This document shows, in pieces, positions 8,601 to 62,622 of a stretch of 64,000 nt of DNA. A program made the translations under genes and the position numbers. How positions within the stretch are numbered: the stretch's first letter is position 1; each line of letters opens with the position of its first letter. The notes under the pieces are model-generated. The model was not told the DNA's origin, searched no databases, and was given only the letters and a program-made list of their open reading frames with translations. The DNA comes from Pristiophorus japonicus (Eukaryota), in NCBI RefSeq assembly GCF_044704955.1, contig NW_027254445.1, positions 310,001 to 374,000 of the forward strand, given 5' to 3'.

Positions 8601-9759
8601 CTTGTGGTGTACTGGCCTGGCGTCCGGATTTATGTGAATCACTACCTTGGCCCCCATGAAAGTGCCAATGCCGGGTTGAAATAATGAGTCAAATTTGTCC
8701 AGGACTTGTGAGCATGATACTCGCTCCACAGAAGAAATTGCATTGACATCGCCCCATTTCCAGTTCATGACAGCAAGCCAACTCCTCCCCAGTAGTGCTG
8801 GACCATCCCCCGGGACAATCCAGAGTGGCAATCTGTTCTCCGAATCTTTGTGGGTCACGACGACCGTGGCGCTGCCTAGCACCGGAATGATCTCCTTTGT
8901 ATATGTCCGTAGCTGTGTGTCAATCGGCAATAATTTTGGCCTCCTGGCCTTCGACGCCCACAACTTGTTGAACTGTTTGATTCTCATCAGGGGCTGGCTG
9001 GCCCCCGTGCTTAGCTCCATTGATACTGGGATGTCATTGAGGAGCACTTTCATAATTATCGGTGGCGTCCTGGTGTATGAACTGTATATGTGCTCCACAT
9101 GAACTCGCTGAACTTCAGCTTCCAGCGATTTCCCCCAGTGTTCATTTGGCCTCGTAGAGCTGACATCGGGCCCGTCCTTCTCGTACATCAACCTGGCTGC
9201 AGGCTTCCTGCACATACGTGCCAAGTGACCGCTCACGTTGCAATTTCTGCAGGTATATTGCTGATACCTGCAAGCTCTGGCTGGGTGTTTGCCTCCACAC
9301 CTCCAACATGAGCTGTTGTTGGAAACAAAAGGTCCATTACCAGTCGATTGTCTCTGACTGTCTCTGTAACTGCTCTTAAGCGCACTATTGACAGGTGTTG
9401 ATGGCCCCATTACTGGCCGCATTGTCCCTTGCGATGGCATGAATCGCCGTTCAGCTAGCCATTGTCTCTGTTGAATTCCCCCTTTGGGTTCGACTACCTG
9501 CTCGGGCATGTCCGATTGCCCCTGACTGCCTGGAGAACTGTGTGCCACGTTAACAATGTTGACTTCCTATCCATTTGCTGCATTTCAGCCAAGATTTTTC
9601 TAAATATCATTCTGATCTCTTCCTCTCCTGAGAGAAACGTCTGGGCCATCAAAGCCGCCTTTTCCAGGGTCAAGTCTTTGGTCTCAATCAGTTTCCTGAA
9701 AACCCCTGTGTGCCCAATGCCCTCAATAAAAAAGTCTCGCAGCATCTTTTGATGAAGAA

Positions 9760-12010
9760 GTAGTGTGAGGAAGTAGTGTCTCAAACGAGCGTACTATGCT
9801 TAAACAAAGGGGACGACAGTGGGATGAGGACAGAGTTGGCTAAAGTAGACTGGAAACACAGACTAAACGGTGGCACAATTGAGGAACAGTGGAGGACTTT
9901 TAAGGAGCTCTTTCATAGTGCTCAACAAAAATATATTCCAGTGAAAAAGAAGGATGATAAGAGAAGGGATAACCAGCCGTGGATAACCAAGGAAATAAAG
10001 GAGAGTATCAAATTAAAAACCAATGCGTATAAGGTGGCCAAGGTTAATGGGAAACTAGAAGATTGGGAACATTTTAAACGACAGCAAAGAATGACTAAGA
10101 AAGCAATAAAGAAAGGAAAGATAGATTACGAAAGTAAACTTGTGCAAAACATAAAAACAGATCGTAAAAGCTTTTACAGATATATAAAACGGAAAAGAGT
10201 GACTAAAGTAAATGTTGGTCCCTTAGAAGATGAGAAGGGGATTTAATAATGGGAAATGTGGAAATGGCTGAGACCTTAAACAATTATTTTGCTTCAGTCT
10301 TCACAGTGGAAGACACAAAAACCATGCCAAAAATTGCTGGTCATGGGAATGTGGGAAGGGAGGACCTTGAGACAATAACTGTCACTTGGGGGGTAGTGCT
10401 GAACAGGCTAATGGGACTCAAGGTAGACAAGTCCCCTGGTCCTGATGAAATGCATCCCAGGGTATTAAAAGAGATGGTGGAATTATAGCAGATGCATTCG
10501 TTATAATCTACCAAAATTCTCTGGACTCTGGGGAGGTACCAGCGGATTGGAAAGCAGCTAATGTAACGCCTCTGTTTAAAAAAGGGGGCAGACAAAAGGC
10601 AGGTAACTATAGGCCAGTTAGTTTAACATCTGTAGTGGAGAAAATGCTTGAAGCTATCATTAAAGAAGAAATAGCAGGACATCTAGATAGGAATAGTGCA
10701 ATCAAGCAGACACAACATGGATTCATGAAGGGGAAATCATGTGTAACTAATTTACTAGAATTCTTTGAGGATGTAATGAGCATGGTGGATAGAGGTGTAC
10801 CGATGGATGTGGTGTATTTAGATTTCCAAAAGGCATTCGATAAGGTGCCACACAAAAGGTTACTGCAGAAGATAAAGGTACGCGGAGTCAGAGGAAATGT
10901 ATTAGCATGGATAGAGAATTGGCTGGCAAACAGAAAGCAGTGAGTTGGGATAAATGGGTCCTTTTTGGGTTGGAAATCGGTGGTTAGTGGTGTGCCACAG
11001 GGATCGGTGCTGGGACCACAACTGTTTATAATATACATAGATGACCTGGAAGAGGGGACAGAGTGTAGTGTAACAAAATTTGCAGATGACACAAAGATTA
11101 ATGGGAAAGTGGGTTGTGTCGAGGATACAGAGAGGCTGCCAAGAGATTTAGATAAGTTAAGCGAATGGGCTAAAGTATGGCAGATGGAATACAATATCGG
11201 AAAATGTGAGGTCATCCACCTTGGGAAAAAAAACAGTAAAAGGGAATATTATTTGAATGGTGAGAAATTACAACATGCTGTGGTGCAGAGGGATCTGGGG
11301 GTCCTTGTGCAGGAATCCCAAAAAGTTAGTTTGCAGGTGCAGCAGGTAATCAGGAAGGCGAATGGAATGTTGGCCTTCATTGCGAGAGGGATGGAGTACA
11401 AAAGCAGGGAGGTCCTGCTGCAACTGTACAGGGTATTGGTAAGGCCGCACCTGGAGTACTGCGTGCAGTTTTGGTCACCTTACTTAAGGAAGGATATACT
11501 AGCTTTGGAAGGGGTACAGAGACGATTCACTAGACTGATTCCGGAGATGAGGGGGTTACCTTATGATAATAGATTGAGTAGACTGGGTCTTTACTCGTTG
11601 GAGCTCAGAAGGATGAGGGGTGATCTTTTCGAAACATTTAAAATAATGAAGCGGATAGACAGGATAGAGGCAGAGAGGTTGTTTCCACTGGTCGGGGAGA
11701 CTAGAACTAGGAGGCACAGCCTCAAAATACGGGGTAGCCAATTTAAAACCGAGTTGAGAAGGAATTTCTTCTCCCAAGGGTTGTGAATCTGTGGAATTCT
11801 CTGCCCAAGGAAGCAGTTGAGGCTAGCTCATTGAATGTATTCAAGTCACAGATAGATAGATTTTTAACCAATAAGGGAATTAAGGGTTATGGGGAGCGGG
11901 TGGATAAGTGGAGCTGAGTCCACAGCCAGATCAGCCATGATCTTGTTGGATGGTGGAGCAGGCTCGAGGGGCTAGATGGCCTACTCCTGTTCCTAATTCT
12001 TATGTTCTTA
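9760..12010 (+). mobile_element. 5'-truncated CR1 LINE nested in the Gypsy gag
   Basis: Frameshifted ORF2 pieces ([27 protein letters not shown]) and a (TTCTTATG)n tail. Confidence 0.92.
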
Positions 12011-12015
12011 TTAAT

Positions 12016-12342
12016 ATTGGGGAGGTTTGGAACCAGGGGTCACAGTCTGGGGATAAGGGGTGGGCCATTTAGGACCGAGATGAGGAGAACCTTGTTCACC
12101 CGGAGAGTGGTGAACCTGTAGAATTCTCTACCACAGAGAGTTGTTGGGGCCAATTCACTGGATATATTCAAAAAGGAGTTAGATGTAGTCATTACTACTG
12201 GGGGGATCGGTGGGTATGGGGAGAAAACAGGAATGGGGTACTGAAGTTGCATGTTCAGCCATGAAGTCATTGAATGGCGGTGCAGGCTCGAAGGGTCGAA
12301 TGGCCTACTCCTGCACCTATTTTCTATGTTTCTATGTTTCTA
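12016..12342 (+). mobile_element. CR1 3' fragment with excess A-to-G changes
   Basis: Matches the 3' end of the 29010-30930 family, with A>G swaps (ctaagg>ctgggg, gtaagcc>gtgggcc, cactaaat>cactggat); (TTCTATGT)n tail. Confidence 0.8.
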
Positions 12343-13001: not shown

Positions 13002-14600
13002 AACGTGAAATTCTGTCGTATTATGATCACTCTGCCCCACAGGATCCTTTACGATGAGATTGCTAATTAACCCTGTCTCATTGCACAATACAAGATCTAA
13101 AGTAACCTGTTCCCTGGTTGGTTCCATGACGTATTGTTCTAGGAAAGTGTCCCGAATGCATTCCATGAACTCATCCTCCAGACTACCTTCACCAATTTGA
13201 TTTATCCAGTCTATATGAAGATTAAAGTCCTCCACGATTATTGCATTACCTTTGTTACAAGTTCATACTATTCTTGATTAATATTCTGTCCAACAGTATA
13301 GCTAGTGTTAGGGGGCCTATATACTACTCCCACCAGTGTTTTCTGCCCCTTGTTATTCCTTACCTTCACCCAGACTGATTCTACTTCCTGATCGTCTGAC
13401 CCAAAATCCTGTGGCATCGAAACTTCCCCTTCCCTTAAGGCCTGTTACCGCTGGAAATCAGCGGCCACACTGCGGTATCCCGGCGGTGACCCGCTCCCCA
13501 CCCAGCGTTCTGCTGCTGCCGACCCGTCCTAAGCCCGATCTTCCCACCTCCCCGTGGGTGAAATTCAGCCGGAAATATCTTGCTCCCGCTGCGCGGTGCC
13601 AAAAGCTGCTTTTTTCTGCTGGTGCAGTGAGGCTGTAGTCCTTGTAAAATGGTGGTGTGTCTCCCATTAAAGGGGAGGACCCACTGCCGCTGCCACCATG
13701 CTTTTTTTCTGTCAGCCGACTGCCATGTCAGGCCGACAATTATGTCCCGGGTTCGGCCGGGCCACCAACAGGCAGCCTGGCACGCACTCCTTCTTGGGTG
13801 CCAGGCCGCTGGCCCGGCCGAAACCCTCCTGGTGGCCCAGTGGACTGAACTTAAAGAATCGCAGCGGCCCTCCCCTTTACCTGAAGGTGGGAGCCGAGGT
13901 GATGTGGCACCGTGATGACGTTATCTGCGTCACGCTGATGACTGACAGCGCCGGTTACTCTGCCCGCCCCCAACTTCCACTCCTCAAGTCCGAACTTCCG
14001 CTCATTGCCGCATAACCCTCATTATTACCGACTTCTTGTCCGCCGGAAAAACACAAAAACATTGAATTTTGCTCGAGGCCACCGCATTCACTTCGCCGGT
14101 AAATACAAGAGAAGCAGGGCAGGTGTGCCCCGTTTCCAGCAGTGGGTATTTTAGTCCCTTTCTCTCTTGTGTCCTTATATCATCCTTTATTATCAGGGTT
14201 ACCCCCACTCCTTTACCATTCAGCCTGTCTTTTCAAAACGTCAAGTACCCTGGGTCATTTAGTTCCCAACCTCGGTCACCTTGCAACCATGTCTCTGTAA
14301 TGGCTATTAGATCAAACCCATTTATCTCTATTTGTGCCACTCCTTCATTTATCTTATTATGAATGCTCCATGCATTCAGATAAAGAGCCTTTAATGTAAT
14401 TTTTTACCGTTGTTCCCTGCTTTGACCTTATTCTCTGCTGCACTGCTACCATTCAACTCTGTCCTTTCCTGTCACACTCTGCTTATTTTTACCCAAATCG
14501 TTACACTGCTCTATTGCATCTTTCTCTTTAGATCTCTAAATTTCCCCTCACATGACTCCTGCCCCCACTCCCCGCCATTTTTTAGTTTAGTTTGAAGCCC
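13002..14600 (-). mobile_element. Old CR1 endonuclease-region fragments split by a GC-rich insertion (about 13410-14160)
   Basis: ORF 12930-13235 carries the APE motifs DFNLHIDW...PTREQVTLDLVLCN..SDHN. CR1 sequence resumes at about 14160. Confidence 0.75.
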
Positions 14601-16202: not shown

Positions 16203-16817
16203 GTAAGTATATTCTACATTATATTGGTTTGATATCTAATAATGTTACAATACCAACATCTCATGTGTAAGTAAATGTTGTACAACGTTGTCACTTTTAC
16301 AGTAACAACACTGAGTGGAAATTCTAAGTACAGAATGGAGGGTGAAATCTGGGACAAACTCCATTTGTTTTTAATTTGTTTAAGTGAGCACATGGTGGGA
16401 CAAAACCTCACACACAGGATTCAACGGGAAAATACATGTTGAGGGAAAAGTGCAGTAATAGGAATAATGGTGACATACCTGGTTAAATCAGGATATTGAC
16501 AGGGTATATATATAAAACAATGCATCTCTGAGTGACTAAATCTGCACTCATCAATGCAAACAAATGAGCCCTCGACCCTTTCCAAGCTGCAATAAACCAT
16601 CCTTCAGCCTGTTAATGTAATTCAGGAATGTGCAATCCGCTTTCAGAATGGCTGGGCGGCAAAGTAATGCATCTCGTTTTGGAGTTGAAAGCCAGAAAAT
16701 ATTTAATAATAGAGTCCCATAGAAACATAGAAACATAGAAAATAGGTGCAGGAGCAGGCCATTCAGCCCTTCTAGCCTGCACCGCCATTCAATGAGTTCA
16801 TGGCTGAACATGAAACT

Positions 16818-19724
16818 TCAGTACCCCCTTCCTGCTTTCTCGCCATAACCCTTGATCCCCCGAGTAGTAAGGACTTCATCTAACTCCCTTTTGAATATAT
16901 TTAGTGAATTGGCCTCAACTACTTTCTGTGGTAGAGAATTCCACAGGTTCACCACTCTCTGGGTGAAGAAGTTTCTCCTCATCTCGGTCCTAAATGGCTT
17001 ACCCCTTATCCTCAGACTGTGACCTCTGGTTCTGGACTTCCCCAACATTGGGAACATTCTTTCTGCATCTAACCTGTCTAAACCCGTCAGAATTTTAAAC
17101 GTTTCTATGAGGTCCCCTCTCATTCTTCTGAACTCCAGTGAATACAATCCCAATTGATCCAATCTTTCTTGATAGGTCAGTCCCGCCATCCCGGGAATCA
17201 GTCTGGTGAACCTTCGCTGCACTCCCTCAATAGCAAGAATGTCCTTCCTCAAGTTAGGAGACCAAAACTGTACACAATACTCCAGGTGTGGCCTCACCAA
17301 GGCCCTGTACAACTGTAGCAACACCTCCCTGCCCCTGTATTCAAATCCCCTCGCTATGAAGGCCAACATGCCATTTGCTTTCTTAACCGCCTGCTGTACC
17401 TGCATGCCAACCTTCAATGACTGATGTACCATGACACCCAGGTCTCGTTGCACCTTCCCTTTTCCTAATCTGTCACCATTCAGATAATAGTCTGTCTCTC
17501 TGTTTTTACCACCAAAGTGGATAACCTCACATTTATCCACATTATACTTCATCTGCCATGCATTTGCCCACTCACCTAACCTATCCAAGTCACTCTGCAG
17601 CCTAATAGCATCCTCCTCGCAGCTCACACTGCCACCCAACTTAGTATCATCCGCAAATTTGGAGATACTGCATTTAACCCCCTCGTCTAAATCATTAATG
17701 TACAATGTAAACAGCTGGGGCCCCAGCACAGAACCTTGCGGCACTCCACTAGTCACTGCCTGCCATTCTGAAAAGTACCCGTTTACTCCTACTCTTTGCT
17801 TCCTGTCTGACAACCAGTTCTCAATCCACGTCAGCACACTACCCCCAATCCCATGTGCTTTAACTTTGCACATTAATCTCTTGTGTGGGACCTTGTCGAA
17901 AGCCTTCTGAAAGTCCAAATATACCACATCAACTGGTTCTCCCTTGTCCACTTTACTGGAAACATCCTCAAAAAATTCCAGAAGATTTGTCAAGCATGAT
18001 TTCCCTTTCACAAATCCATGCTGACTTGGACCTATCATGTCACCATTTTCCAGATGCACTGCTATGACATCCTTAATAATTGATTCCATCACTTTACCCA
18101 CTACTGAGGTCAGGCTGACCGGTCTATAATTCCCTGTTTTCTCTCTCCCTCCTTTTTTAAAAAGTGGGGTTACATTGGCTACCCTCCACTCCATAGGAAC
18201 TGATCCAGAGTCAATGGAATGTTGGAAAATGACTGTCAATGCATCCGCTATTTCCAAGGCCACCTCCTTAAGTACTCTAGGATGCAGTCCATCAGGCCCT
18301 GGGGATTTATCGGCCTTCAATCCCATCAATTTCCCCAACACAATTTCCCGACTAATAAAGATTTCCCTCAGTTCCTCTTCCTTACTAGACCCTCTGACCC
18401 CTTTTATATCCGGAAGGTTGTTTGTATCCTCCTTAGTGAATACCGAACCAAAGTACTTGTTCAATTGATCCGCCATTTCTTTGCTCCCCGTTATGACTTC
18501 CCCTGATTCTGACTGCAGGGGACCTACGTTTGTCTTCACCAACCTTTTTCTCTTTACATACCTATAGAAACTTTTGCAATCCGCCTTAATGTTCCCTGCA
18601 AGCTTCTTCTCGTACTCCATTTTCCCTGTCCTAATCAAACCCTTTGTCCTCCTCTGCTGAGTTCTAAATTTCTCCCAGTCCCCAGGTTCGCTGCTATTTC
18701 TGGCCAATTTGTATGCCACTTCCTTGGCTTTAATACTATCCCTGATTTCCCTAGATAGCCACGGTTGAGCCACCTTCCCCTTTTTATTTTTACGCCAGAC
18801 AGGAATGTACAATTGTTGTACTTCATCCATGCGGTCTCTAAATGTCTGCCATTGCCCATCCACAGTCAACCCCCTAAGTATCATTCGCCAATCTATCCTA
18901 GCCAATTCACGCCTCATACCTTCAAAGTTACCCTTCTTTAAGTTCTGGACCATGGTCTCTGAAATTACTGTTTCATTCTCCATCCTAATGCAGAATTCCA
19001 CCATATTATGGTCACTCTTCCCCAAGGGGCCTCGCACAATGAGATTGCTAATTAATCCTCTCTCATTACACAACACCCAGTCTAAGATGGCCTCCCCCCT
19101 AGTTGGTTCCTCAACATATTGGTCTAGAAAACCATCCCTTATGCACTCCAGGAAATCCTCCTCCACCGTATTGCTTCCAGTTTGGCTAGCCCAATCTATG
19201 TGCATATTAAAGTCACCCATTATAACTGCTGCACCTTTATTGCATGCACCCCTAATTTCCTGTTTGATGCCCTCCCCAACATCCCTATTACTGTTTGGAG
19301 GTCTGTACACAACTCCTACTAACGTTTTTTGCCCTTTGGTGTTCTGCAGCTCTACCCATATAGATTCCACATCATCCAAGCTAATGTCTTTCCTAACTAT
19401 TGCATTAATCTCCTCTTTAACCAGCAATGCTACCCCACCTCCTTTTCCTTTTATTCTATCCTTCCTGAATGTTGAATACCCCTGAATGTTGAGTTCCCAG
19501 CCCTGATCATCCTGGAGCCACGTCTCCGTAATCCCAATCACATCATATTTGTTAACATCTATTTGCACAATTAATTCATCCACCTTATTGCGGATACTCC
19601 TTGCATTAAGACACAAAGCCTTCAGGCTTGTTTTATTAACACCCTTTGTCCTTTTAGAATTTTGCTGTACAGTGGCCCTTTTTGTTCTTTGCCTTGGGTT
19701 TCTCTGCCCTCCACTTTTCCTCAT
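16818..19724 (-). CDS. CR1 ORF2: APE endonuclease plus reverse transcriptase (968 aa)
   Basis: EN motifs CLNARSI, ITETW, MGDFN, SDH; RT motifs [26 protein letters not shown]. Confidence 0.96.
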   Translation of the reverse strand: MRKSGGQRNPRQRTKRATVQQNSKRTKGVNKTSLKALCLNARSIRNKVDELIVQIDVNKYDVIGITETWLQDDQGWELNIQGYSTFRKDRIKGKGGGVALLVKEEINAIVRKDISLDDVESIWVELQNTKGQKTLVGVVYRPPNSNRDVGEGIKQEIRGACNKGAAVIMGDFNMHIDWASQTGSNTVEEDFLECIRDGFLDQYVEEPTRGEAILDWVLCNERGLISNLIVRGPLGKSDHNMVEFCIRMENETVISETMVQNLKKGNFEGMRRELARIDWRMILRGLTVDGQWQTFRDRMDEVQQLYIPVWRKNKKGKVAQPWLSREIRDSIKAKEVAYKLARNSSEPGDWEKFRTQQRRTKGLIRTGKMEYEKKLAGNIKADCKSFYRYVKRKRLVKTNVGPLQSESGEVITGSKEMADQLNKYFGSVFTKEDTNNLPDIKGVRGSSKEEELREIFISREIVLGKLMGLKADKSPGPDGLHPRVLKEVALEIADALTVIFQHSIDSGSVPMEWRVANVTPLFKKGGREKTGNYRPVSLTSVVGKVMESIIKDVIAVHLENGDMIGPSQHGFVKGKSCLTNLLEFFEDVSSKVDKGEPVDVVYLDFQKAFDKVPHKRLMCKVKAHGIGGSVLTWIENWLSDRKQRVGVNGYFSEWQAVTSGVPQGSVLGPQLFTLYINDLDEGVKCSISKFADDTKLGGSVSCEEDAIRLQSDLDRLGEWANAWQMKYNVDKCEVIHFGGKNRETDYYLNGDRLGKGKVQRDLGVMVHQSLKVGMQVQQAVKKANGMLAFIARGFEYRGREVLLQLYRALVRPHLEYCVQFWSPNLRKDILAIEGVQRRFTRLIPGMAGLTYQERLDQLGLYSLEFRRMRGDLIETFKILTGLDRLDAERMFPMLGKSRTRGHSLRIRGKPFRTEMRRNFFTQRVVNLWNSLPQKVVEANSLNIFKRELDEVLTTRGIKGYGEKAGRGY

Positions 19725-19801
19725 CTCCTTTCTGTCTTTTGCTTTTGGCTCCTTTTTGTTTCCCTCTGTCTCCCTGCATTGGTTCCCATCCCCCTGCCAT
19801 A

Positions 19802-20749
19802 TTAGTTTAAATCCTCCCCAACAGCACTAGCAAACACTCCCCCTAGGACATTGGTTCCAGTCCTGCCCAGGTGCAGACCGTCCGGTTTGTACTGGTCCCA
19901 CCTCCCCCAGAACCGGTCCCAATGCCCCAGGAATTTGAATCCCTCCCTGCTGCACCACTGCTCAAGCCACGTATTCATCTGCGCTATCCTGCGATTCCTA
20001 CTCTGACTATCACGTGGCACTGGTAGCAATCCCGAGATTACTACTTTTGAGGTCCTACTTTTTAATTTAGCTCCTAGCTCCTTAAATTCGTTTCGTAGGA
20101 CCTCATCCCTTTTTTTGCCTATGTCGTTGGTACCAATGTGCACCACGACAACTGGCTGTTCTCCCTCCCATTTCAGAATGTCCTGCACCCGCTCCGAGAC
20201 ATCCTTGACCCTTGCACCAGGGAGGCAACATACCATCCTGGAGTCTCGGTTGCGGCTGCAGAAACGCCTATCTATTCCCCTCACAATTGAATCCCCTATC
20301 ACTATCGCTCTCCCACTCTTTTTCTTGCCCTCCTGTGCAGCAGAGCCAGCCACGGTGCCATGAACTTGGCTGCTGCTGCCCTCCCCTGATGAGTCATTCC
20401 CCTCAACAGTACCCAAAGCGGTGTATCTGTTTTGCAGGGGGATGACCGCAGGGGACCCCTGCACTACCTTCCTTGCTCTACTCTTCCTGCTGGTCTTCCA
20501 TTCCCTATCTGGCTGTGGACCCTTTCCCTGCGGTAAGACCAACTCACTACACGTGATACTCACGTCATTCTCAGCATCGTGGATGCTCCAGAGTAAATCC
20601 ACCCTCAGCTCCAATTCCGTAACGCGGACCGTCAGGAGCTGGAGGCGGATACACTTCCCGCACACGTAGTCGTCAGGGACACCGGAAGTGTCCCTGAGTT
20701 CCCACATGGTACAGGAGGAGCATAACACCCGACCGAGCTCTCCTGCCAT
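19802..20749 (-). CDS. CR1 ORF1: Cys-finger/coiled coil plus SGNH esterase domain (315 aa)
   Basis: CSSC...CGKC; SGNH blocks VIGDSIVRG, HIGTND, DGLHL. Confidence 0.92.
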   Translation of the reverse strand: MAGELGRVLCSSCTMWELRDTSGVPDDYVCGKCIRLQLLTVRVTELELRVDLLWSIHDAENDVSITCSELVLPQGKGPQPDREWKTSRKSRARKVVQGSPAVIPLQNRYTALGTVEGNDSSGEGSSSQVHGTVAGSAAQEGKKKSGRAIVIGDSIVRGIDRRFCSRNRDSRMVCCLPGARVKDVSERVQDILKWEGEQPVVVVHIGTNDIGKKRDEVLRNEFKELGAKLKSRTSKVVISGLLPVPRDSQSRNRRIAQMNTWLEQWCSREGFKFLGHWDRFWGRWDQYKPDGLHLGRTGTNVLGGVFASAVGEDLN

Positions 20750-20933
20750 GTCTTAACCCTTAGATACACTTAAACTGGTAATAACAATGTTAAAAGTTAC
20801 TGACCAATATAAGAAGAAAAAGAAAAACTACTCACCAATCACCAGCCAATCACTTACCCCCTCGGCTGTGACGTCACCTTTGTTTTTTTTGCCTTCTCCC
20901 TGCAGCTGCCGTGAGAAACTCGTCCGTGGGCCC

Positions 20934-21825
20934 GGAATGTACCCAATACACACAGACTGTAGTGGGTCTGGAATGTGTCCAATACACACAGACTGTAGTG
21001 GGTCTGGAATGTACCCAATACACACAGACTGTAGTGGGTCTGGAATGTACCTAATACACACAGACTGTAGTGGGTCTGGAATGTACCCAATACACACAGA
21101 CTGTAGTGGGTCTGGAATGTACAATATACACACAGACTGTAGTGGGTCTGGAATGTACCCAATACACACAGACTGTAGTGGGTCTGGAATGTACCCAATA
21201 CACACAGACTGTAGTGGGTCTGGAATGTGTCCAATACACACAGACTGTAGTGGGTCTGGAATGTACCCAGTACACACCGACTGTAGTGGGTCTGGAATGT
21301 GTCCAACACACACAGACTGTAGTGGGTCTGCAATGAACCCAATACGCACAGACTGCAGTGGGTCTGGAATGTACCCAATACACACAGACTGTAGTGTGTC
21401 TGGAATGTACCCAATACACGCAGACTGTAGTGGGTCTGCAATGAACCCAATACGCACAGACTGCAGTGGGTCTGGAATGTACCCAATACACACAGACTGT
21501 AGTGTGTCTGGAATGTACCCAATAGACACAGACTGTAGTGGGTCTGGAATGTACCCAGTGCACACAGACTGTAGTGGGTCTGGAATGTACCCAATACACA
21601 CAGACTGTTGTGGATCTGGAATGTACCCAATACACACAGACTGCAGTGGGTCTGGAATGTACCCAATACACACAGACTGTAGTGTGTCTGGAATGTGTCC
21701 AACACACACAGACTGTAGTGGGTCTGGAATGTACCCAATACACACAGACTGTTTTGGGTCTGGAATGTACCCAATACACACAGACTGCAGTGGGTCTGGA
21801 ATGTACCCAATACAAACAGACTGTT
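20934..21825. repeat. 36-bp minisatellite, about 25 copies
   Basis: Unit ggaatgtacccaatacacacagactgtagtgggtct; explains the 12-aa periodic ORFs on both strands. Confidence 0.97.
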
Positions 21826-27733: not shown

Positions 27734-28662
27734 CCTCTCGCAGACACTGCCCGACTCCTTGTCTCATGGCCTTTTGTAGGTCTCTCCACATACCCCGGAC
27801 TGTCTCCTCTCGCAGACACTGCCCGACTCCTTGTCTCGCGGCCTTTTGTAGGTCTCTCCACACACCCCGGACTGTCTCCTCTCGCAGACACTGTCTGACT
27901 CCTTGTCTCATGGCCTTTTGTAGGTCTCCACACACCCCGGACTGTCTCCTCTCGCAGACACTGCCCGACTCCTTGTCTCACAGCCTTTTGTAGGCCTCCA
28001 CACACCTCGGACTGTCGCCTCTCGCAGACACTGTCCGACTCCTTGTCTCGCGGCCTTTTGTAGGTCTCTCCACACACCCCGGACTGTCTCCTCTCGCAGA
28101 CACTGCCCGACTCCTTGTCTCATGGCCTTTTGTAGGCCTCCACACACCCCGGACTGTCTCCTCTCGCAGACACTGCCCGACTCCTTGTCTCATGGCCTTT
28201 TGTAGGTCTCTCCACACACCCCGGACTGTCTCCTCTCGCAGACACTGCCCGACTCCTTGTCTCATGGCCTTTTGTAGGCCTCCACACACCCCGGACTGTC
28301 TCCTCTCGCAGACACTGTCCGACTCCTTGTCTCATGGCCTTTTGTAGGTCTCTCCACACACCCCGGACTGTCTCCTCTCGCAGACTCAGTCCAACTCCTT
28401 GTCTCGCGGCCTTTTGTAGGCCTCCACACACCGCGGACTGTCTCCTCTCGCAGACACTGTCTGACTCCTTGTCTTGCGGCCTTTTGTAGGCCCCCACGCA
28501 CCGCGGACTGTCTCCTCTCGCAGACACTGCCCGACTCCTTGTCTCATGGCCTTTTGTAGGCCTCCACGCACCCCGGACTGTCTCCTCTCGCAGACACTGT
28601 CTGACTCCTTGTCTTGCGGCCTTTTGTAGGTCTCTCCACACACCCCGGACTGTCGCCTCTCG
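27734..28662. repeat. 70-72-bp minisatellite, about 13 copies
   Basis: Unit cctctcgcagacactgcccgactccttgtctcatggccttttgtaggtctctccacacaccccggactgtct, with 2-bp indel variants. Confidence 0.95.
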
Positions 28663-28664
28663 CC

Positions 28665-47099: not shown

Positions 47100-50000
47100 A
47101 CACAGGGTATGGTGAGGCCACACCTGGAGTACTGCGTGCAGTTTTAGTCTCCGTATTTACGGAAGGATAGACTTGCATTGGAGGCTGTTCTGAGAAGGTT
47201 CACCAGGTTGATTCCGGAGATGGGCAGGAAAGTGGAGCTGAGTCCATGATCGGATTAGCCATGATCTTATTGAATGGCGGAGCAGGCTCGAGGAGCCAAA
47301 TGGCCTACTCCTCCTCCTACATAAGAACAGAAGAACATAAGAATTAGGAACAGGAGTAGGCCATCTAGCCCCTCGAGCCTGCTCCGCCATTCAACAAGAT
47401 CATGGCTGATCTGGCCGTGGACTCAGCTCCACTTACCTGCCCGCTCCCCATAACCCTTAATTCCCTTATTGGTTAAAAATCTATCCATCTGTGACTTGAA
47501 TACATTCAATGAGCTAGCCTCAACTGCTTCCTTGGGCAGAGAATTCCACAGATTCACAACCCTTGGGAGAAGAAATTCCTTCTCAACTCGGTTTTAAATT
47601 TGCTCCCCCGTATTTTGAGGCTGTGCCCCCTAGTTCTAGTCTCCCCGAACCTCTCTGCCTCTATCTTGTCTATCCCTTTCATTATTTTAAATGTTTCTAA
47701 TAAGATCACCCCTCATCCTTCTGAACTCCAACGAGTAAAGACCCAGTCTACTCAATCTATCATCATAAGGTAACTCCCTCATCTCCGGAATCAGCCGAGT
47801 GAATCGTCTCTGCACCCGCTTCAAGCTAGTAAATCCTTCCTTTAGTAAGGTGACCAAAACTGCACGCAGTACTCCAGGTGCGGCCTCACCAATACCCTAT
47901 ACAGTTGCAGAAGGACCTCCCTGCTTTTGTACTCCATCCCTCTCGCAATGAAGGCCAACATTCCATTCGCCTTCCTGATTACCTGCTGCACCTGCAAACT
48001 AACTTTTTGGGATCCATGCACAGGACCCCCAGGTCCCTCTGCCTAACAGCATGTTGTAATTTCTCCCCATTCAAATAATATTCCCTTTTACTGTTTTTGT
48101 TCCCAAGGTGGATGACCTCACACTTTCCGACATTGTATTCCATCTGCCAAAGCTTAGCCCATTCGCTTAACCTATCTAAATCTCTTTGCAGCCTCTCTGT
48201 GTCCTCTACACAACCGCTTTCCCACTAATCTTTGTGTCATCTGCAAATTTTGTTGCACTACACTCTGTCCTCTCTTCCAGGTCATCTATGTATATTGTAA
48301 ACAGTTGTGGTCCCAGCACCGATCCCTGTGGCACACCACTAACATCGATTTCCAACCTGAAAAGGACCCATTTATCTCGACTCTCTGCTTTCTGTTAGCC
48401 AGCCAATTCTCGATCCATGCTCATACATTTCATCTCACTCCGCGTACCTTTATCTTCTACAGTAACCTTTTGTGTTGCACCTTATCGAATGCCTTTTGAA
48501 AATCTAAATACACCACATCCATCGGTACACCTCTATCCACCATGCTCGTTATATCCTCAAAGAATTCCAGTAAATTAGTTAAACATGATTTCCCCTTCAT
48601 GAATCCATGTTGTGTCTGCTTGATTGCACTACTCCTATGTAGATGTCCTGCTATTTCTTCCTTAAAGATAGTTTCAAGCATTTTCCCCACTACAGATGTT
48701 AAACTAACCGGCCTATAGTTACCTGCCTTTTGTCTGCCCCCTTTTTTAAACAGAGGCGTTACATTAGCTGCTTTCCAATCCGCTGGTACCTCCCCAGAGT
48801 CCAGAGAATTTTGGTAGATTATAACGAATGCATCTGCTATAACTTCCGCCATCTCTTTTAATACCCTGGGATGCATTTCATCAGGACCAGGGGACTTGTC
48901 TACCTTGAGTCCCATTAGCCTGTCCAGCACTACCCCCCTCGTGATAGTGATTGTCTCAAGGCCTCCCTTCCCACATTCCCGTGACCAGCAATTTTTGGCA
49001 TGGTTTTTGTGTCTTCCACTGTGAAGACCGAAGCAAAATAATTATTTAAAGTCTCAGCCATTTCCACATTTCCCATTATTAAATCCCCCTTCTCATCTTC
49101 TAAGGGACCAGCATTTACTTTTGTCACTCTTTTCCGTTTTATATATCTGTAAAAGCTTTTACTATCCGTTTTTATGTTTTGCGCAAGTTTACCTTCGTAA
49201 TCTATCTTTCCTTTCTTTATTGCTTTCTTAGTCATTCTTTGCTGTCGTTTAAAATTTTCCCAATCTTCTAGTTTCCCACTAACCTTGGCCACCTTATACG
49301 CATTGGTTTTTAATTTGATACTCTCCTTTATTTCCTTGGTTATCCACGGCTGGTTATCCCTTCTCTTACTGCCCTTCTTTTTCACTGGAACATATTTTTG
49401 TTGAGCACTATGAAAGAGCTCCTTAAAAGTCCTCCACTGTTCCTCAATTGTGCCACCATTTAGTCTGTGTTTCCAGTCTACTTTAGCCAACTCTGCCCTC
49501 ATCCCACTGTAGTCCCCTTTGTTTAAGCATAGTACGCTCGTTTGAGACACTACTTCCTCACCCTCAATCTGTATTACAAATTCAATCATACTGTGATCAC
49601 TCGTTCCGCGAGGATCTTTTACGAGGAGATCATTTATTATTCCTGTCTCATTACACAGGACCAGATCTAAGATAGCTTGCTCCCTTGTAGGTTCTGTATC
49701 ATACTGTTCTCAGAAACAATCCCATATGCATTCTATGAATTCCTCCTCCAGGCTACCCCGTGCGATTTGATTTAACCAATCGATCAGTAGGTTAAAATCC
49801 CCCATGATTACTGCCATTCCTTTTTCACATGCCTCCATTATTCCCTTGATTATTGCCTGCCCCACCGTGAAGTTATTATTTGGGGGCCTATAAGTGACTT
49901 TTTCCCCTTACTATCTCTAATCTCCACCCACAATGATTCAACATTTTGTTCATCAGAGCCAATATCGTCTCTCACAACTGCCCTGATATCATCCTTTATT

Positions 50001-54541: not shown

Positions 54542-57115
54542 CAGAAACATAGAAACATAGAAAATAGGTGCAGGAGTAGGCCATTCGGCCCTTCTAGCCT
54601 GCACCGCCATTCAATGAGTTCATGGCTGAACATTCAACTTCAGTACCCCATTCCTGCTTTCTCGCCATACCCCTTGATCCCCCTAGTAGTAAGGACCTCA
54701 TCTAACTCCTTTTTGAATATATTTAGTGAATTGGCCTCAACAACTTTCTGTGGTAGAGAATTCCACAGGTTCACCACTCTCTGGGTGAAGAAGTTCCTCC
54801 GCATCTCGGTCCTAAATGGCTTACCCCTTATCCTTAGACTGTGACCTCTGGTTCTGGACTTCCCCAACATTGGGAACATTCTTCCTGCATCTAACCTGTC
54901 TAACCCCGTCAGAATTTTATATGTTTCTATGAGGTCCTCTCTCATTCTTCTGAACTCCAGTGAATACAAGCCCAGTTGATCCAGTCTTTCTTGATAGGTC
55001 AGTCCCGCCATCCCGGGAATCAGTCTGGTGAACCTTCACTGCACTCCCTCAATAGTATTAAAGCCAAGGAAGTGGCATACAAATTGGCCAGAAATAGCAG
55101 TGAACCTGGGGACTGGGAGAAATTTAGAACTCAGCAGAGGAGGACAAAGGGTTTGATTAGGGCAGGGAAAATGGAGTATGAGAAGAAGCTTGCAGGGAAC
55201 ATTAAGACGGATTGCAAAAGTTTCTATAGATATGTAAAGAGAAAAAGGTTAGTAAAGACAAACGTAGGTCTTCTGCAGTCAGAATCAGGGGAAGTCATAA
55301 CGGGGAACAAAGAATTTTATATGTTTCTATGAGGTCCCCTCCTCAGGTTAGGAGACCAAAACTGTACACAATACTCCAGGTGTGGCCTCACCAATGCCCT
55401 GTACAACTGTAGCAACACCTCCCTGCCCCTGTACTCAAATCCCCTTGCTATGAAGGCCAACATGCCATTTGCTTTCTTAACCGCCTGCTGCACCTGCATG
55501 CCAACCTTCAATGACTGATGTACCATGACACCCAGGTCTCGTTGCACCTCCCCTTTTCCTAATCTGTCACCATTCAGATAATAGTCTGTCTCTCTGTTTT
55601 TACCACCAAAGTGGATAACCTCACATTTATCCACATTATACTTCATCTGCCATGCATTTGCCCACTCACCTAACCTATCCAAGTCGCTCTGCAGCCTCAC
55701 AGCATCCTCCTCACAGCTCACACTGCCACCCAACTTAGTGTCATCCGCAAATTTGGAGATACTACATTTAATCCCCTCATCTAAATCATTAATGTACAGT
55801 GTAAACAGCTGGGGCCCCAGCACAGAACCTTGCGGTACCCCACTAGTCACTACCTGCCATTCTGAAAAGTACCCATTTACTCCTACTCTTTGCTTCCTGT
55901 CTGACAACCAGTTCTCAATCCATGTCAGTACACTACCCCCAATCCCATGTGCTCTAACTTTGCACATCAATCTCTTGTGTGGGACCTTGTCGAACGCCTT
56001 CTGAAAGTCCAAATATACCACATCAACTGGTTCTCCCTTATCCACTCTACTGGAAACATCCTCAAAAAATTCCAGAAGATTTGTCAAGCATGATTTCTCT
56101 TTCACAAATCCATGCTGACTTGGACCTATCATGTCACCTCTTTCCAAATGCACTGCTATGACATCCTTAATAATTGATTCCATCATTTTACCCACTACCG
56201 ATGTCAGGCTGACCGGTGTATAATTCCCTGTTTTCTCTCTCCCTCCTTTTTTAAAAAGTGGGGTTACATTGGCTACCCTCCACTCCATAGGAACTGATCC
56301 AGAGTCAATGGAATGTTGGAAAATGACTGTCAACGCATCCACTATTTCCAAGGCCACCTCCTTAAGTACTCTGGGATGCAGTCCATCAGGCCCTGGGGAT
56401 TTATCGGCCTTCAATCCCATCAATTTCCCCAACACAATTTCCCGGCTAATAAGGATTTCCCTCAGTTCCTCCTCCTTACTAGACCCCCCGACCCCTTTTA
56501 TAACCGGAAGGTTGTTCGTGTCCTCCTTCGTGAATACCGAAGCAAAGTACTTGTTCAATTGGTCCGCCATTTCTTTGTTTCCCGTTATGACTTCCCCTGA
56601 TTCTGACTGCAGAGGACCTACGTTTGTCTTTACTAACCTTTTTCTCTTTACATATCTATAGAAACTTTTGCAATCCGTCTTAATGTTCCCTGCAAGCTTC
56701 TTCTCATACTCCATTTTCCCTGCCCTAATCAAACCCTTTGTCCTCCTCTGCTGAGTTCTAAATTTCTCCCAGTCCCCAGGTTCACTGCTATTTCTGGCCA
56801 ATTTGTATGCCACTTCCTTGGCTTTAATACTATCCCTGATTTCCCTTGATAGCCACGGTTGAGCCACCTTCCCTTTTTTATTTTTATGCCAGACAGGAAT
56901 GTACAATTGTTGTAGTTCATCCAAAAGTCTCTAAATGTCTGCCATTGCCCATCCACAGTCAACCCCTTAAGTATCATTCGCCAATCCATCCCAGCCAATT
57001 CACGCCTCATACCTTCAAAGTTAGCCTTCTTTAAGTTCTGGACCATGGTCTCTGAATCAACTGTTTCATTCTCCATCCCAATGCAGAATTCCACCATATT
57101 ATGGTCACTCTTCCC
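54542..57115 (-). mobile_element. 5'-truncated CR1 with an internal inverted self-duplication (55051-55315)
   Basis: ORFs 55317-56924 and 54640-55011. The + strand ORF 54976-55332 repeats SIKAKEVAYKLARN...ITGNKE from about 56570-56830. Confidence 0.9.
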
Positions 57116-57499
57116 CTGGTAACTCTGGGAATATCTGGTGCCATAGTTCCCAGTCAGTGGGTCATAACGGAATGGCACCTGGGCCAGGAAATAGTGCGGG
57201 GAATCCTGTTAGACCGCTCTAACGCACGTGTAGAAAATGTGCAGGAGCCCATTTTACATCTTGTAATCTGTGGAAATGAATGCTAATGGTGGCTAGCAGC
57301 ATTCCCCAGTTTTCCCAGGAGCAATGTCCATTGTGCTCTGCTCACCCACATAAAGTGAGCCAGTGCTTTCAGCAGGTCGGTACGCAAAGGGCTTCTGGCT
57401 TTTCCACAGCAGCGTTTTTGATGATGGACGTGGGATTTGAGAGCTGCGGCTGGTGATTGTATTTTTTAAAGTGCAGTTTTGTTTTATTTGTTGTGATGC

Positions 57500-58640
57500 A
57501 CTGCATTGGAATTATTCCACATCACAGGATTCGCCAAAGTCCAAGACATTGTTGTTGGTATCCGTGCCCACCTTGGACCCTACACATTACACCACGGTCT
57601 TCCTGAACTCCGGGGGTTTCTAACCCCCTCAATGTGCAGTTCAGTGACCAGCTCATCATACGGTGAATGTTCTGATCCCTCCATTTTAAGACCATCCACT
57701 GTGCCTAAACTCTTTCAAGGAGAAGGCAGACTGGGATCATGGCTCCTGAAAGACAAAGGCTATCCTCTGAGCTCTGGTTCCTGACATCATTGTGACAAGC
57801 GGGATCAAAGACACAACATGATGCACGCAGTCACCGGGATCATTCATCTCCAAGATGCACCAATGCTTTTCTAGTCCTGACCCCATCTACAAAATACACT
57901 GGCCCAATACACCCTTACCAACATAGACCTCTGCACTAACTCAACTACCACAGCGGCCCAGCCTATTGCCTGCTAATACCTAATTCTGCACTGTCAGATG
58001 GAAACTGTCTGCATCACAGGTTGGGCCTCTACTCATTGGCATTCAGAAGAATGAGAGGTGATCGTTTCAATACGTATAAGATTCTGAGATCCGTGACCGT
58101 CTCATCAGAGTTCCATCCCACTTCCCGGTTCCTTTGGACGTCCCCATGACCACATCCATTTTCCCTTCCATTCCAAAGCCCCAAAACTGAAATGAGAGAC
58201 AACAGCAAAGATTAAAAATTCCAATCCAAATTTATATCAGAACAACATAATATATTTACTAATCACCCTTGTGCATTTCCTTCTATCCCCTTTTTGCTTT
58301 AACTAGTCTAGCGTTCCTCCGCTGAGGCACGGCTGGTGGAAGACTGCTGCGTGTCAGGGCCAGATACTACAGAAGGCCTTGCAGGACACCCTCGACCAGC
58401 TCTGGGCCTGGAAGGCTCGGCTGTAGACTCCACCACCTCAGGCTGGGCAGCAGCAGTCTGGGCTGGCTGGATGACGGCCAGCGACAAGTGCAATGGCGGA
58501 GTGGCAGTGGTGGGATCAGGATAGCTGTCATTCTGAGAAAGGACAGCAGGTTCCTGCTCCACTGACCCAGTGCCACTCCCCCGGGGCAGCACCTCAACAT
58601 CCCCAACAATTTGCTGGAGCACAGTTTGGTGGGCTGCTGC
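57500..58640. mobile_element. PIF/Harbinger DNA transposon remnant
   Basis: Degenerate HARBI1-type transposase motifs on + (FHITGFAKVQ, LNVQ, ILRPSTVPKLF, WLLKDKGYPL). The convergent decayed ORF at 58308-58675 may be the second (Myb-like) gene. Confidence 0.6.
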
Positions 58641-58641
58641 G

Positions 58642-59512
58642 AACTTGGATAGGTTAGGTAAGTGGGCAAATGCATGGCAGATGAAGTATAATGTGGATAA
58701 ATGTGAGGTTATCCACTTTGGTGGTAAAAACAGAGAGACAGACTATTATCTGAATGGTGACAGATTAGGAAAAGGGGAGGTGCAACGAGACCTGGGTGTC
58801 GTGGGACATCGGTCACTGGGGGTTGGCATGCAGATACGGCAGGCGGTTGGGAGGGCGGGTGGCGTGTTGGCCTTCATGGCGGGGGGATTTGAGTGCAGGG
58901 GTGGGGAGGTGTTGCTGCGGTTGTGCAGGGCCCTGGTGAGGCTGTGCCTGGAGTGTTGTGTGCAGTTTTGGTCTCCTGACTTGAGGGGGGACACTCTTGC
59001 TGTTGAGAGGGTACAGCGAGGGTTCACCGGATTGATTCCCGGGATGGTGGGACTGACGTGTCTGGGTGAGCGGGGGGAGCTGGATCGACTGGGCTTGTAT
59101 TCGCTGGAGTTCGGAGGAGTGAGAGGGGATCTCATGGAAATGTTTCGGGTTCTGGCGGGTTTGGACAGGTTGGATGCGGGAGGGATGTTCCTGGTGTTAG
59201 GGGGGTCCGGGACCGGGGGTCACGGTCTAGGGATGGGGGTGGGCCATTTGGGGCCGAGATGGGGGGGAAACTTCTTCGCCCGGGGGGTGGTGGACCTGTG
59301 GAATTCTCTACCACGGAAAGTTGTTGAGGCCAATTCACTAAATGTGTTCGGGAAGGAGTTAGATGTGGTCCTCGCTATTGGGGGGTATGGCGGGGGAGCG
59401 GGAGTGGGGTGCTGGAGTTGCATGTTCGGCCATGAACTCGTTGAATGGCAGTACGGGCTCGAGGGGCCGAATGGCCTACTCCTGCACCTATTTTCTATGT
59501 TTCTATGTTTCA
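58642..59512 (+). mobile_element. CR1 3' fragment, A-to-G hypermutated over about 58800-59460
   Basis: Collinear with 30060-30930, but K/N/Y/Q codons are turned into G/R/C (VGMQIRQAVGRAGGVLAF vs VGMQIQQAVKKANGMLAF). Confidence 0.92.
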
Positions 59513-59850
59513 ATGGTAGCTGTGGATGTACTGGATGACATGATTATACACTATATCCACTTGGAATATGCATCCACCACAACTAAAAACATCTTTCCCA
59601 GGAAGAGACCTGCAAAGTCAATGTGGATCCTGGACCGTGGTTTAGATGGCCACAACCACAGACTCAGCGGCGATTTCGCTGATGCTTTAATTAGCTGCAT
59701 GCAAGTGTTGCACTGATGCACACATGATTCCAGATCAGAGTCAATTCCAGGTCATCATACATGAGATCTGGCAATGGCTTTCATCATGACAATACCGGGA
59801 TGAGTGCTATGTAGATCATGTACAAATTTCTCTCTGCCTTTCTTAGGCAT
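59513..59850 (-). mobile_element. Gypsy integrase fragment
   Basis: The minus strand reads HIDFAG..LGKMFLVVVDAYSKWI and HSTHPGIVMMKAIARS. Confidence 0.8.
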
Positions 59851-61167
59851 AGTCTAAGGATAAGGGGTAAGCCACAGTCTAAGGATAAGGGGTAAGCCAT
59901 TTAGGACCGAGATGAGGAGAAACTTCTTCACCCAGAGAGTGGTGAACCTGTGGAATTCTCTACCACAGAAAGTTGTTGAGGCCAATTCACTAAATATATT
60001 CAAAAAGGAGTTAGATGTAGTCCTTACTACTAGGGGGATCAAGGGGTATGGCGAGAAAGCAGGAATGGGGTGCTGGAGTTGCATGTTCAGCCATGAACTC
60101 ATTGAATGGTGGTGCAGGCTCGAAGGGCCGAATGGCCTACTCTTGCACCTATTTTCTATGTTTCTATGTTTTTCTATGACAAGGTGGATGCAGAGAGGAT
60201 GTTTCCACTGATACAGGAGACGAGAACTAGGAGGCATAATCTTAGTATAAGGGACCGCCCATTTAAAACTGAGATGAGGAGGAATTTCTTCCCTCAGAGG
60301 GTTTTAAATCTGTGGAATTCGCTGCCTCAGAGAGCTGTGGAAGCTGGGGCATTGAATATATTTAAGACAGAGATAGACAGTTTCTTAACTGATAAGGGCA
60401 TAAGGGGTTATGGGGAACGGACAGGGAAGTGGACCTGAGTCCATGATCGGATCAGCCATGATCATATTAAATGGCGGAGCAGGCTCGAGGGGTTGTATGG
60501 CCTACTCCTGCTCCTATTTCTTATGTTTTTATGTTCATTGTTTTCGGTCCCTGCCACAAACTCCGTTCCCTAGCCACTGACTCCATCCCTCTCTCCAACT
60601 TCTGCCTGAGGTTGAACCAGACTGTTCACAATCTTGGTGTCATATTTGACCCTGAAATGAGCTTTCGACCACATAGCCACAGCATAACTACAACCGCCTA
60701 TTTCCACCTCCGTAACATCACCCATCTCCGCCCTTGCCTCAGCTCATCCGCTGCTGAAACCCTCATCCATGCCTTTGTTACCTCTAGACTTGACGATTCC
60801 AAAGCACTCCTGGCTGATCTCCCATATTATACCCTACGTAAACTAGAGGTGATCCAAAACTCGGCAGCCCGTGTCCGAACTCGCACCAAGTCCTGCTCAC
60901 TCATCACCCCTGTGCTCGCTGACCTTCTGTTGCCTGGGCCCCAAGCTCTGGAACTCCCTGCCTAGACCTCTCCGCCTCTCTACCTCTCCTTCCTCCTTCA
61001 AGACGCTCCTTAAAACCTAACTCTTTGAACAAGCTTTTGGTCACCTGCATCAATTTCTACTTATGTGGCTCAGTGTCAAATTCTTTATCTCAAATAATAC
61101 TCCTGTGAAGCACCTTGGGACATTCACTACGTTAAAGGCACTATATAAATACAAGTTGTTGTTGTTA
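59851..61167 (+). mobile_element. Stack of LINE 3' ends: CR1 (59851-60175), second CR1 subfamily (60178-60535), L2 (60536-61167)
   Basis: Two CR1 tails; L2 C-terminus NLGVIFDPEMSF...ETLIHAFVTSRLD with tail tataaatacaagttgttgttg. Confidence 0.85.
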
Positions 61168-61291
61168 TGTATAGGAGACAAACATAACCCACTTCAATCA
61201 GGAGTCGATCGAACATCAACCAAACGGTCATGACTTGTGCAGAATTTCATTTTAAGAGAGAGACGTTCTTTGAAGCTTCTGTGCTCTTTCC

Positions 61292-62622
61292 TGCTCACAG
61301 CAGTCCCAGTGTGAAGTTGTACAGAAACATTCACTGATATTTATGCTCACAGCAGTGCCAGTGTGAAGTTGTACAGAAACATTCACTGATATTTATGCTC
61401 ACAGCAGTGCCAGTGTGAAGTTGTACAGAAACATTCACTGATATTTATGCTCACAGCAGTGCCAGTGTGAAGTTGTTGTACAGAAACATTCACTGATATT
61501 TATGCTCACAGCAGTGCCAGTGTGAAGTTATACAGAAACATTCACTGATATTTATGCTCACAGCAGTGCCAGTGTGAAGTTGTTGTACAGAAACATTCAC
61601 TGATATTTATGCTCACAGCAGTGCCAGTGTGAAGTTGTTGTACAGAAACATTCACTGATATTTATGCTCACAGCAGTGCCAGTGTGAAGTTGTACAGAGA
61701 CATTCACTGATATTTATGCTCACAGCAGTCCCAGTGTGAAGTTGTACAGAGACATTCACTGATATTTATGCTCACAGCAGTGCCAGTGTGAAGTTGTTGT
61801 ACAGAGACATTCACTGATATTTATGCTCATAGCAGTGCCAGTGTGAAGTTGTACAGAGACATTCACTGATATTTATGCTCACAGTAGTGCCAGTGTGAAG
61901 TTGTACAGAGACATTCACTGATATTTATGCTCACAGCAGTGCCAGTGTGAAGTTGTTGTACAGAGACATTCACTGATATTTATGCTCACAGCAGTGCCAG
62001 TGTGAAGTTGTACAGAAACATTCACTGATATTTATGCTCACAGCAGTGCCAGTGTGAAGTTGTTGTACAGAGACATTCACTGATATTTATGCTCACAGCA
62101 GTACCAGTGTGAAGTTGTACAGAGACATTCACTGATATTTATGCTCACAGCAGTGCTAGTGTGAAGTTGTACAGAGACATTCACTGATATTTATGCTCAC
62201 AGCAGTACCAGTGTGAAGTTGTACAGAGACATTCACTGATATTTATGCTCACAGCAGTGCCAGTGTGAAGTTGTACAGAGACATTCACTGATATTTATGC
62301 TCACAGCAGTGCCAGTGTGAAGTTGTACAGAAACATTCACTGATATTTATGCTCACAGCAGTGCCAGTGTGAAGTTGTTGTACAGAAACATTCACTGATA
62401 TTTATGCTCACAGCAGTGCCAGTGTGAAGTTGTACAGAAACATTCACTGATATTTATGCTCACAGCAGTGCCAGTGTGAAGTTGTACAGAGACATTCACT
62501 GATATTTATGCTCACAGCAGTGCCAGTGTGAAGTTGTTGTACAGAAACATTCACTGATATTTATGCTCACAGCAGTGCCAGTGTGAAGTTGTTGGACAGA
62601 AACATTCACTGATATTTATGCT
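61292..62622. repeat. 52/55-bp minisatellite, about 25 highly homogeneous copies
   Basis: Unit gctcacagcagtgccagtgtgaagtt(gtt)gtacagaaacattcactgatatttat. Confidence 0.97.

Follow-up and report, generated by a model that had tools for sequence, protein, structure and literature searches.

The window, by which we mean the whole 64,000-nucleotide stretch of Pristiophorus japonicus DNA analysed here, carries at 58643–59511 (plus strand) a 5′-truncated copy of a CR1 LINE, made up of a C-terminal ORF2 fragment, a 3′ UTR, and a tail of octamer repeats. A near full-length, unedited sister at 16721–20909 (minus strand) provides the coordinate frame used below (R1–4189): its ORF1 (19802–20752) encodes a predicted esterase (PF13472, in 19805–20752), and its ORF2 (16818–19826), open over 1002 aa, encodes a predicted APE endonuclease and reverse transcriptase (PF03372, PF14529, and PF00078). 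Esterase-type ORF1 proteins are typical of vertebrate CR1, and judging from the predicted domains of both ORFs the family is a CR1-type LINE, with the 3′ stem-loop, short tandem-repeat tail, lack of poly(A), and 5′ truncation of the clade. The stem-loop of the sister copy has a predicted fold of −23.7 kcal/mol (z −2.6). The closest known elements, CR1-clade LINEs and the shark element HER1 (named in a table of PMC3747384), likewise combine an esterase ORF1, an endonuclease–reverse transcriptase ORF2, and a tail of stem-loop and short repeats. Elsewhere in the window, two different minisatellites (36-base and 70-base, at 20926–21824 and 27734–28663) abut the 5′ ends of the two near full-length CR1 copies, and pieces of an LTR retrotransposon encoding a zinc knuckle, reverse transcriptase, RNase H, and integrase lie at 6481–9566 (minus strand).

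By BLAST, the truncated copy is 82–84% identical to its sisters, and its protein is 69% identical to residues 745–986 of the intact ORF2; the three in-window sisters that cover its full span are 92–95% alike among themselves. Substitutions were scored against the per-column majority of the in-window sisters. The truncated copy reads G at 94 of its 244 A positions, with 24 other substitutions (8 G>A, 8 C>T, 4 T>C, and 4 transversions), whereas the three full-span sisters have only 5–6 A>G changes apiece against the same majority. This one-directional, rather than symmetric, spectrum agrees with an earlier note on this DNA, which had reported dozens of changes, nearly all of them A>G, and both of the example changes quoted there are present in the sequence.

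None of the 50 A's in 58643–58792 is changed, and a change point (edited fraction 0.00 to its left, 0.49 to its right) separates an unedited 5′ block (58643–58800, plus strand) from a hyper-edited block (58801–59463, plus strand) in which 94 of 194 A's are edited (Fisher p = 7e-13 for 94/194 against 0/50). In 94 columns, at least 12 of the 14 paralogs described below read G. The second half of the tail stem-loop and the octamer repeats (59464–59511, plus strand) are again spared, with none of seven A's changed. Within 58643–59511, an A preceded by G is edited less often than any other A (19/58 against 75/133; p = 0.003), and an A followed by G more often (42/66 against 52/125; p = 0.004). Both the sparing of A's after G and an unedited first stretch of about 160 bp had been recognised in the earlier note. 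An apparent 9-nt insertion within the edited block is a G run (59062–59079, plus strand) whose length differs among paralogs and which is near-pure G in the chromosomal paralog L011; we infer a purine tract that was edited and that expanded later. In the ORF2 fragment, 56 codons are recoded by edits. One edit changes the ORF2 stop at 59413–59415 to Trp, within an open frame of 333 aa (58537–59538) that bears no sign of function.

Copies and flanks of the edited insertion

A search of the 5.92-Gb genome, in which 40 of 9,749 candidates were scored, revealed that the edited copy is not unique: 14 loci are 95–100% identical to it and have identical flanks throughout, over 2–8.5 kb, and a left-flank search and a pattern of private changes each return the same 14 loci. 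These common flanks indicate one insertion that was later segmentally duplicated, not a subfamily, so that the many copies of an ordinary G-rich subfamily against which the earlier note had cautioned resolve here into segmental duplicates. Thirteen copies of the surrounding block (57114–62622) stand on short unplaced contigs (97.6–99.3% identity), and part of it is present once on a 317-Mb contig; none of the Rfam families in the window accounts for these 14 copies. The paralogs have since diverged through a 9-nt deletion in six of the 14 and through variable lengths of the G run where edits had removed the A's of the purine tract. Four of them (L044 and L047–L049) carry unedited letters at window positions 59447–59463 that resemble the neighbouring copy at 59873–60171, possibly through gene conversion erasing edits.

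The left flank (58086–58642) is an older repeat, cut at the CR1 junction, whose 16 relatives continue differently past 58642; compared with them, none of its 115 A's shows A>G. Neither a target-site duplication nor an empty site was seen for 58643–59511, whose left and right flanks are different repeats, and a genome search for an unedited source, using three private non-A>G changes as the pattern, returned only the 14 paralogs.

The contig that carries the window is short and unplaced, and the block is multi-copy, a setting that would favour a sequencing or assembly artefact. Yet the edited alleles recur in short-read contigs from runs X1 and X2, which may be the assembly's own sample, with 0–1 differences over pieces of 51–162 bases, as a check on raw reads proposed in the earlier note had envisaged, and the diverged paralog on the 317-Mb contig has them too. 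Decay is also superimposed on the edits: CA>TG is found at 39 of 675 edited sites against 31 of 2,529 unedited ones (p = 1e-10), and this excess at edit-made CpGs indicates that editing came before DNA methylation decay. We therefore regard an artefact as extremely improbable. Run X24, which carries another organism label, yielded no contig on the edited core, which is not proof of absence. Runs X21 and X22, whose record type is unstated, contain 149 and 91 short contigs matching edited words, and relative to unedited bins they hold 7–18 times more edited sequence than X1 in two bins. This excess would fit RNA, but it was set aside as evidence because depth is no valid measure here.

Edited CR1 copies across the genome

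All 26 remaining matches of the search (40 minus 14) are A>G-skewed as well. Two were dropped as probable duplicates on near-identical counts, their flanks uncompared, leaving 25 copies including 58643–59511, all of them chosen by likeness to the G-rich query. Pooled, these copies have 2,584 A>G changes among 9,691 A's, with 158 G>A, 129 C>T, and 48 T>C, and the most heavily changed one has 227 changes. The edited fraction depends on the 5′ neighbour (T 0.62, A 0.55, C 0.37, and G 0.20) and on the 3′ neighbour (G 0.49, A 0.44, C 0.33, and T 0.30), a pattern that recurs in 15 copies retrieved in a different way and that matches the neighbour preference of the metazoan ADAR motif given in the cited section of PMC9989829. 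Across the 300 pairs of copies, edit sets overlap with a median Jaccard index of 0.26 and a maximum of 0.61, 1.5-fold over uniform chance, a modest overlap of the kind that shared site preference would give.

Motif searches extended this picture. An unmutated 23-mer of the family occurs 104,551 times in the genome, the same 23-mer with four forced A>G changes 42 times, and the control with four forced G>A changes not at all. APOBEC would have produced G>A, as the earlier note had argued, and this control, together with the 8 G>A against 94 A>G changes at 58643–59511, bears the distinction out. Antisense patterns gave 6 matches with three forced T>C changes and 5 at another site. Of the 42 A>G-pattern matches, two were already known and 40 were newly fetched; 35 of the 40 passed the skew threshold and five missed it. 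Leaving out the paralogs of 58643–59511, four probable duplicates, and matches with more than 3% transversions, 76 family matches remained, of which 53 are edited (40 ordinary and 13 chimeric), 21 unedited, and two between. The A>G-skewed CR1 copies for which the earlier note had suggested scanning the genome thus include 40 that were separately edited, each with its own edit set. Among them are 3,193 A>G changes at 14,317 A's, 248 G>A, 221 C>T, and 80 T>C, against 98 A>G changes at 8,502 A's in the 21 unedited copies. Overlap of the other copies with the edit set of 58643–59511 reaches a Jaccard index of at most 0.48 (median 0.29, n = 39).

A G-rich CR1 subfamily, or a G-rich ancestor whose sisters were changed G>A by APOBEC, could be read into the 14 near-identical copies, into the overlap of edit sets above uniform chance, and into two small groups (L177 with L178, and L169 with L172 and L173) that have most of their edits in common. 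The common flanks of the 14 copies go against this, as does the A state of the 104,551 exact motif copies and of the intact 1002-aa ORF2, which opposes the reverse polarity. Moreover, other edited copies carry different G sets, and the 40 copies show no codon-position bias (edited fractions of 0.24, 0.22, and 0.24 at positions 1–3, with 1,944 codons hit non-synonymously and 638 synonymously). Either form of this explanation is in our judgement very improbable.

Reverse transcription itself offers another source of A-specific change, and the reverse transcriptases of diversity-generating retroelements are error-prone at A. If a skewed nucleotide pool made the CR1 enzyme misread A, or if the enzyme was error-prone at A, changes would be tied to retrotransposed sequence and would lie in blocks, as they do. 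It would also have to account for A>C and A>T remaining at background level (56 and 90 in the 40 copies) beside 3,193 A>G, for an avoidance of 5′ G and a preference for 3′ G that are those of ADAR, and for sharp switching on and off inside a single cDNA that coincides, in one locus described below (L082), with an inverted arm. We consider such misreading improbable, by a shade more so than the deamination of DNA discussed with that locus.

Since the edited copies were picked with G-rich queries, they establish that the class exists and not how frequent it is, and both their number and their sense-strand excess are ascertainment-biased. The motif recaptured three of 25 edited and 10 of 17 unedited copies, which suggests some 350 edited copies among about 178,000, near 0.2% of the family, an estimate that is rough and probably low. 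Background divergence is similar in edited (2.8%) and unedited (2.2%) copies.

The tail is spared beyond the copy in the window. Among the copies with edits close to their 3′ end (25 in all), 10 of 142 A's without a 5′ G are edited in the last 49 nt, against 412 of 857 in the comparison, and for A's after T the figures are 6 of 94 against 147 of 267. This terminal region folds as a stem-loop. Stringent LINEs are thought to recognise a 3′ stem-loop (PMC3747384, in the part cited). This sparing would fit selection that keeps the tail usable, shielding by a bound protein, or missing pairing, and the spared tail could serve as a map of what the CR1 reverse transcriptase may need.

A second edited piece in the window, at 12013–12341 (plus strand), is the 330-nt tail of a chimeric family, with 14 A>G changes among 95 A's, 3 G>A, and 3 C>T. 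The second-family CR1 fused directly upstream of it (9762–12009, plus strand) is unedited, with 4 A>G changes among 739 A's. Of the 40 A>G-pattern matches, 14 begin at the same base as this tail, mostly right behind a second-family CR1 tail. The junction motif has 1,134 matches in the genome; among the first 100 listed, 12 have G at one of five A's (counted by eye), and among the first 32 chimeric copies listed, four carry edits, with 8, 10, 26, and 39 A>G changes, and 17 are without any A>G. Heavily edited members differ in pattern, except that L169, L172, and L173 carry nearly one pattern. RNA of a single master copy might thus have been edited repeatedly. A common inverted arm was looked for up to 4 kb upstream in 40 chimeric-family copies, and none was found.

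Inverted repeats and the substrate of editing

Among the 11 antisense-pattern matches, six (L080, L176, L081, L082, L177, and L178) are edited on the antisense strand and five (L083, L084, and L179–L181) show no skew. In four of the six (L081, L082, L177, and L178) a sense copy lies beside the antisense piece, and the edits of both fall on one strand. In the composite insertion L082 (G000:C9:114786064-114789087), three pieces stand in a row: a sense copy, a 197-nt piece from a related family in inverted orientation, and a tailed copy without edits. Both arms of its inverted repeat carry A>G on one strand, and in the sense arm 14 of 47 A's are edited within the paired span against 4 of 344 outside it (p = 4e-11).

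L177 and L178 have a 72-nt inverted arm, with 5 and 8 of its 13 T's changed, directly 5′ of an edited sense copy. Their sense edits extend over R3596–4093 and the retained antisense arm covers R3875–3946, so that the edits reach well past the arm and the arm alone is insufficient to explain them. These two loci (650–1555 and 1469–2357, respectively) lie on different contigs and have the same structure, with 34 edits in common and 12 and 8 private ones; either one source was edited twice or an edited founder was re-edited. L176 (1357–1630, with 38 of 64 T's changed) and L080 (1475–1666, with 31 T>C and no A>G) are antisense-edited CR1 pieces, and no edited sense partner was found inside the stretches fetched for them. 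Confinement of edits to double-stranded RNA thus fits L082 well and L177 and L178 partly, and no pairing partner was found for 58643–59511. Human editing depends mostly on intramolecular folds, according to the cited portion of PMC13445718. Within the window, a self-inverted CR1 fragment (47222–47442; 81% over 224 bases) is a possible hairpin source.

ADAR also acts on DNA in RNA:DNA hybrids. Adenines might have been deaminated in DNA, either while the element was being inserted or later, by ADAR or another deaminase that attacked second-strand DNA or the DNA strand of such a hybrid, and the edits described here are known from DNA alone. However, deaminated first-strand cDNA would give T>C when read on the sense strand, and A>G outnumbers T>C by 3,193 to 80 in the 40 copies. 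The flank of the insertion is unedited, and the confinement of the L082 edits to the paired span is not what a DNA substrate would predict. Deamination at the DNA level is, in our estimation, improbable.

A probable route from RNA editing to inherited sequence

The dense one-strand A>G change, with 5′ G disfavoured and 5′ U or A and 3′ G favoured, has the traits of an ADAR product, and from this observed signature we infer the enzyme; a duplex and mobilisation in trans are probable further parts of the explanation. We conclude, with a probability of roughly 0.86, that ADAR deaminated a double-stranded stretch of CR1 RNA and that the inosines were read as G by the CR1 reverse transcriptase and in this form entered germline DNA. 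A transcript with a CR1 3′ tail would have formed a duplex with a CR1 copy in inverted orientation, most likely one within the same molecule, while the transcript's unpaired 5′ part and folded tail escaped editing. About half of the A's in the duplex would then have been deaminated by ADAR, with the neighbour preference seen in the copies, after which an ORF2 protein, probably acting in trans, may have used the intact tail for priming and inserted the cDNA in 5′-truncated form. The duplication of this insertion with its flanks to 14 copies, the decay of edit-made CpGs, and the change in length of the G run form the last step, which is directly observed.

The 56 recoded ORF2 codons and the edited inverted arms of the composite insertions make a fold-back template likelier than an active LINE mRNA, and the template was probably a read-through or intronic fold-back RNA with a CR1 tail. 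The earlier note's proposal that an edited CR1 RNA was reverse-transcribed into the germline is therefore supported, while its further suggestion that the RNA was that of an active LINE is weakened by the same two observations. More broadly, and with distinctly less assurance, we lean towards viewing ADAR editing as a recurring heritable mutagen in this genome, in which the editing of CR1-tailed fold-back transcripts, and their insertion in trans into germline DNA, would have happened hundreds of times. In the chimeric lineage, roughly every eighth offspring would be edited, each differently.

To our knowledge, RNA editing is normally not inherited. On the reading favoured here, LINE reverse transcription makes edits a lasting part of the germline sequence, at a rate that can be measured, and the edited copies form a fossil read-out of germ-cell ADAR activity, neighbour preference, and duplex boundaries. 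This makes it testable whether ADAR restricts LINEs by recoding. If this interpretation is correct, the genome preserves a dated record of RNA duplexes in the germline and of the specificity of ADAR, and editing is a way for RNA modification to become inherited sequence.

Several systems invite comparison, each taken from those parts of the papers that bear on it. In a preprint on cultured cells (PMC11702581), 3 of 235 pseudogenes made by L1 carry ADAR-type clusters; as here, clustered one-strand ADAR-type changes were fixed in DNA by a LINE reverse transcriptase, there restricted to inverted repeats, whereas the present copies are germline and inherited, affect LINE sequence itself, reach 227 changes per copy, and probably represent hundreds of events. 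The avian retroviruses RAV-1 and avian leukosis virus (PMC8586724) likewise had an edited RNA template recorded in DNA by reverse transcription; unlike these hypermutants, the present elements are non-LTR and endogenous, with many independent events in one genome. APOBEC DNA-editing fossils (PMC4866542 and PMC3880073) are a comparable frozen record of strand-biased hypermutation by a host deaminase, but consist of G>A changes from cDNA deamination, in contrast to the A>G changes, ADAR context, and RNA-duplex limits seen here. ADAR hyper-edited clusters in repeats (PMC9989829 and PMC5625713) have the same density and neighbour preference and exist only in RNA, whereas the present ones are in genomic DNA. 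PMC13648404 was considered as a precedent and rejected, the editing in its cited part being in RNA only. Counting against the proposal, the cited part of PMC5224506 reports that human L1 RNA is not edited by ADAR1 in cells and that L1 restriction is editing-independent.

No report of germline-fixed, ADAR-hyper-edited LINE copies was found in the largely open-access literature searched. The genome screen for edited retroelements of PMC4866542, as described in its cited part, retained clusters of G>A and applied a filter against alignments dominated by A>G, and an A>G-edited class could have been passed over for this reason. In the present genome, exons of the adenosine-deaminase domain (PF02137) fall into six clusters, which could belong to ADAR, ADAD, or ADAT genes.
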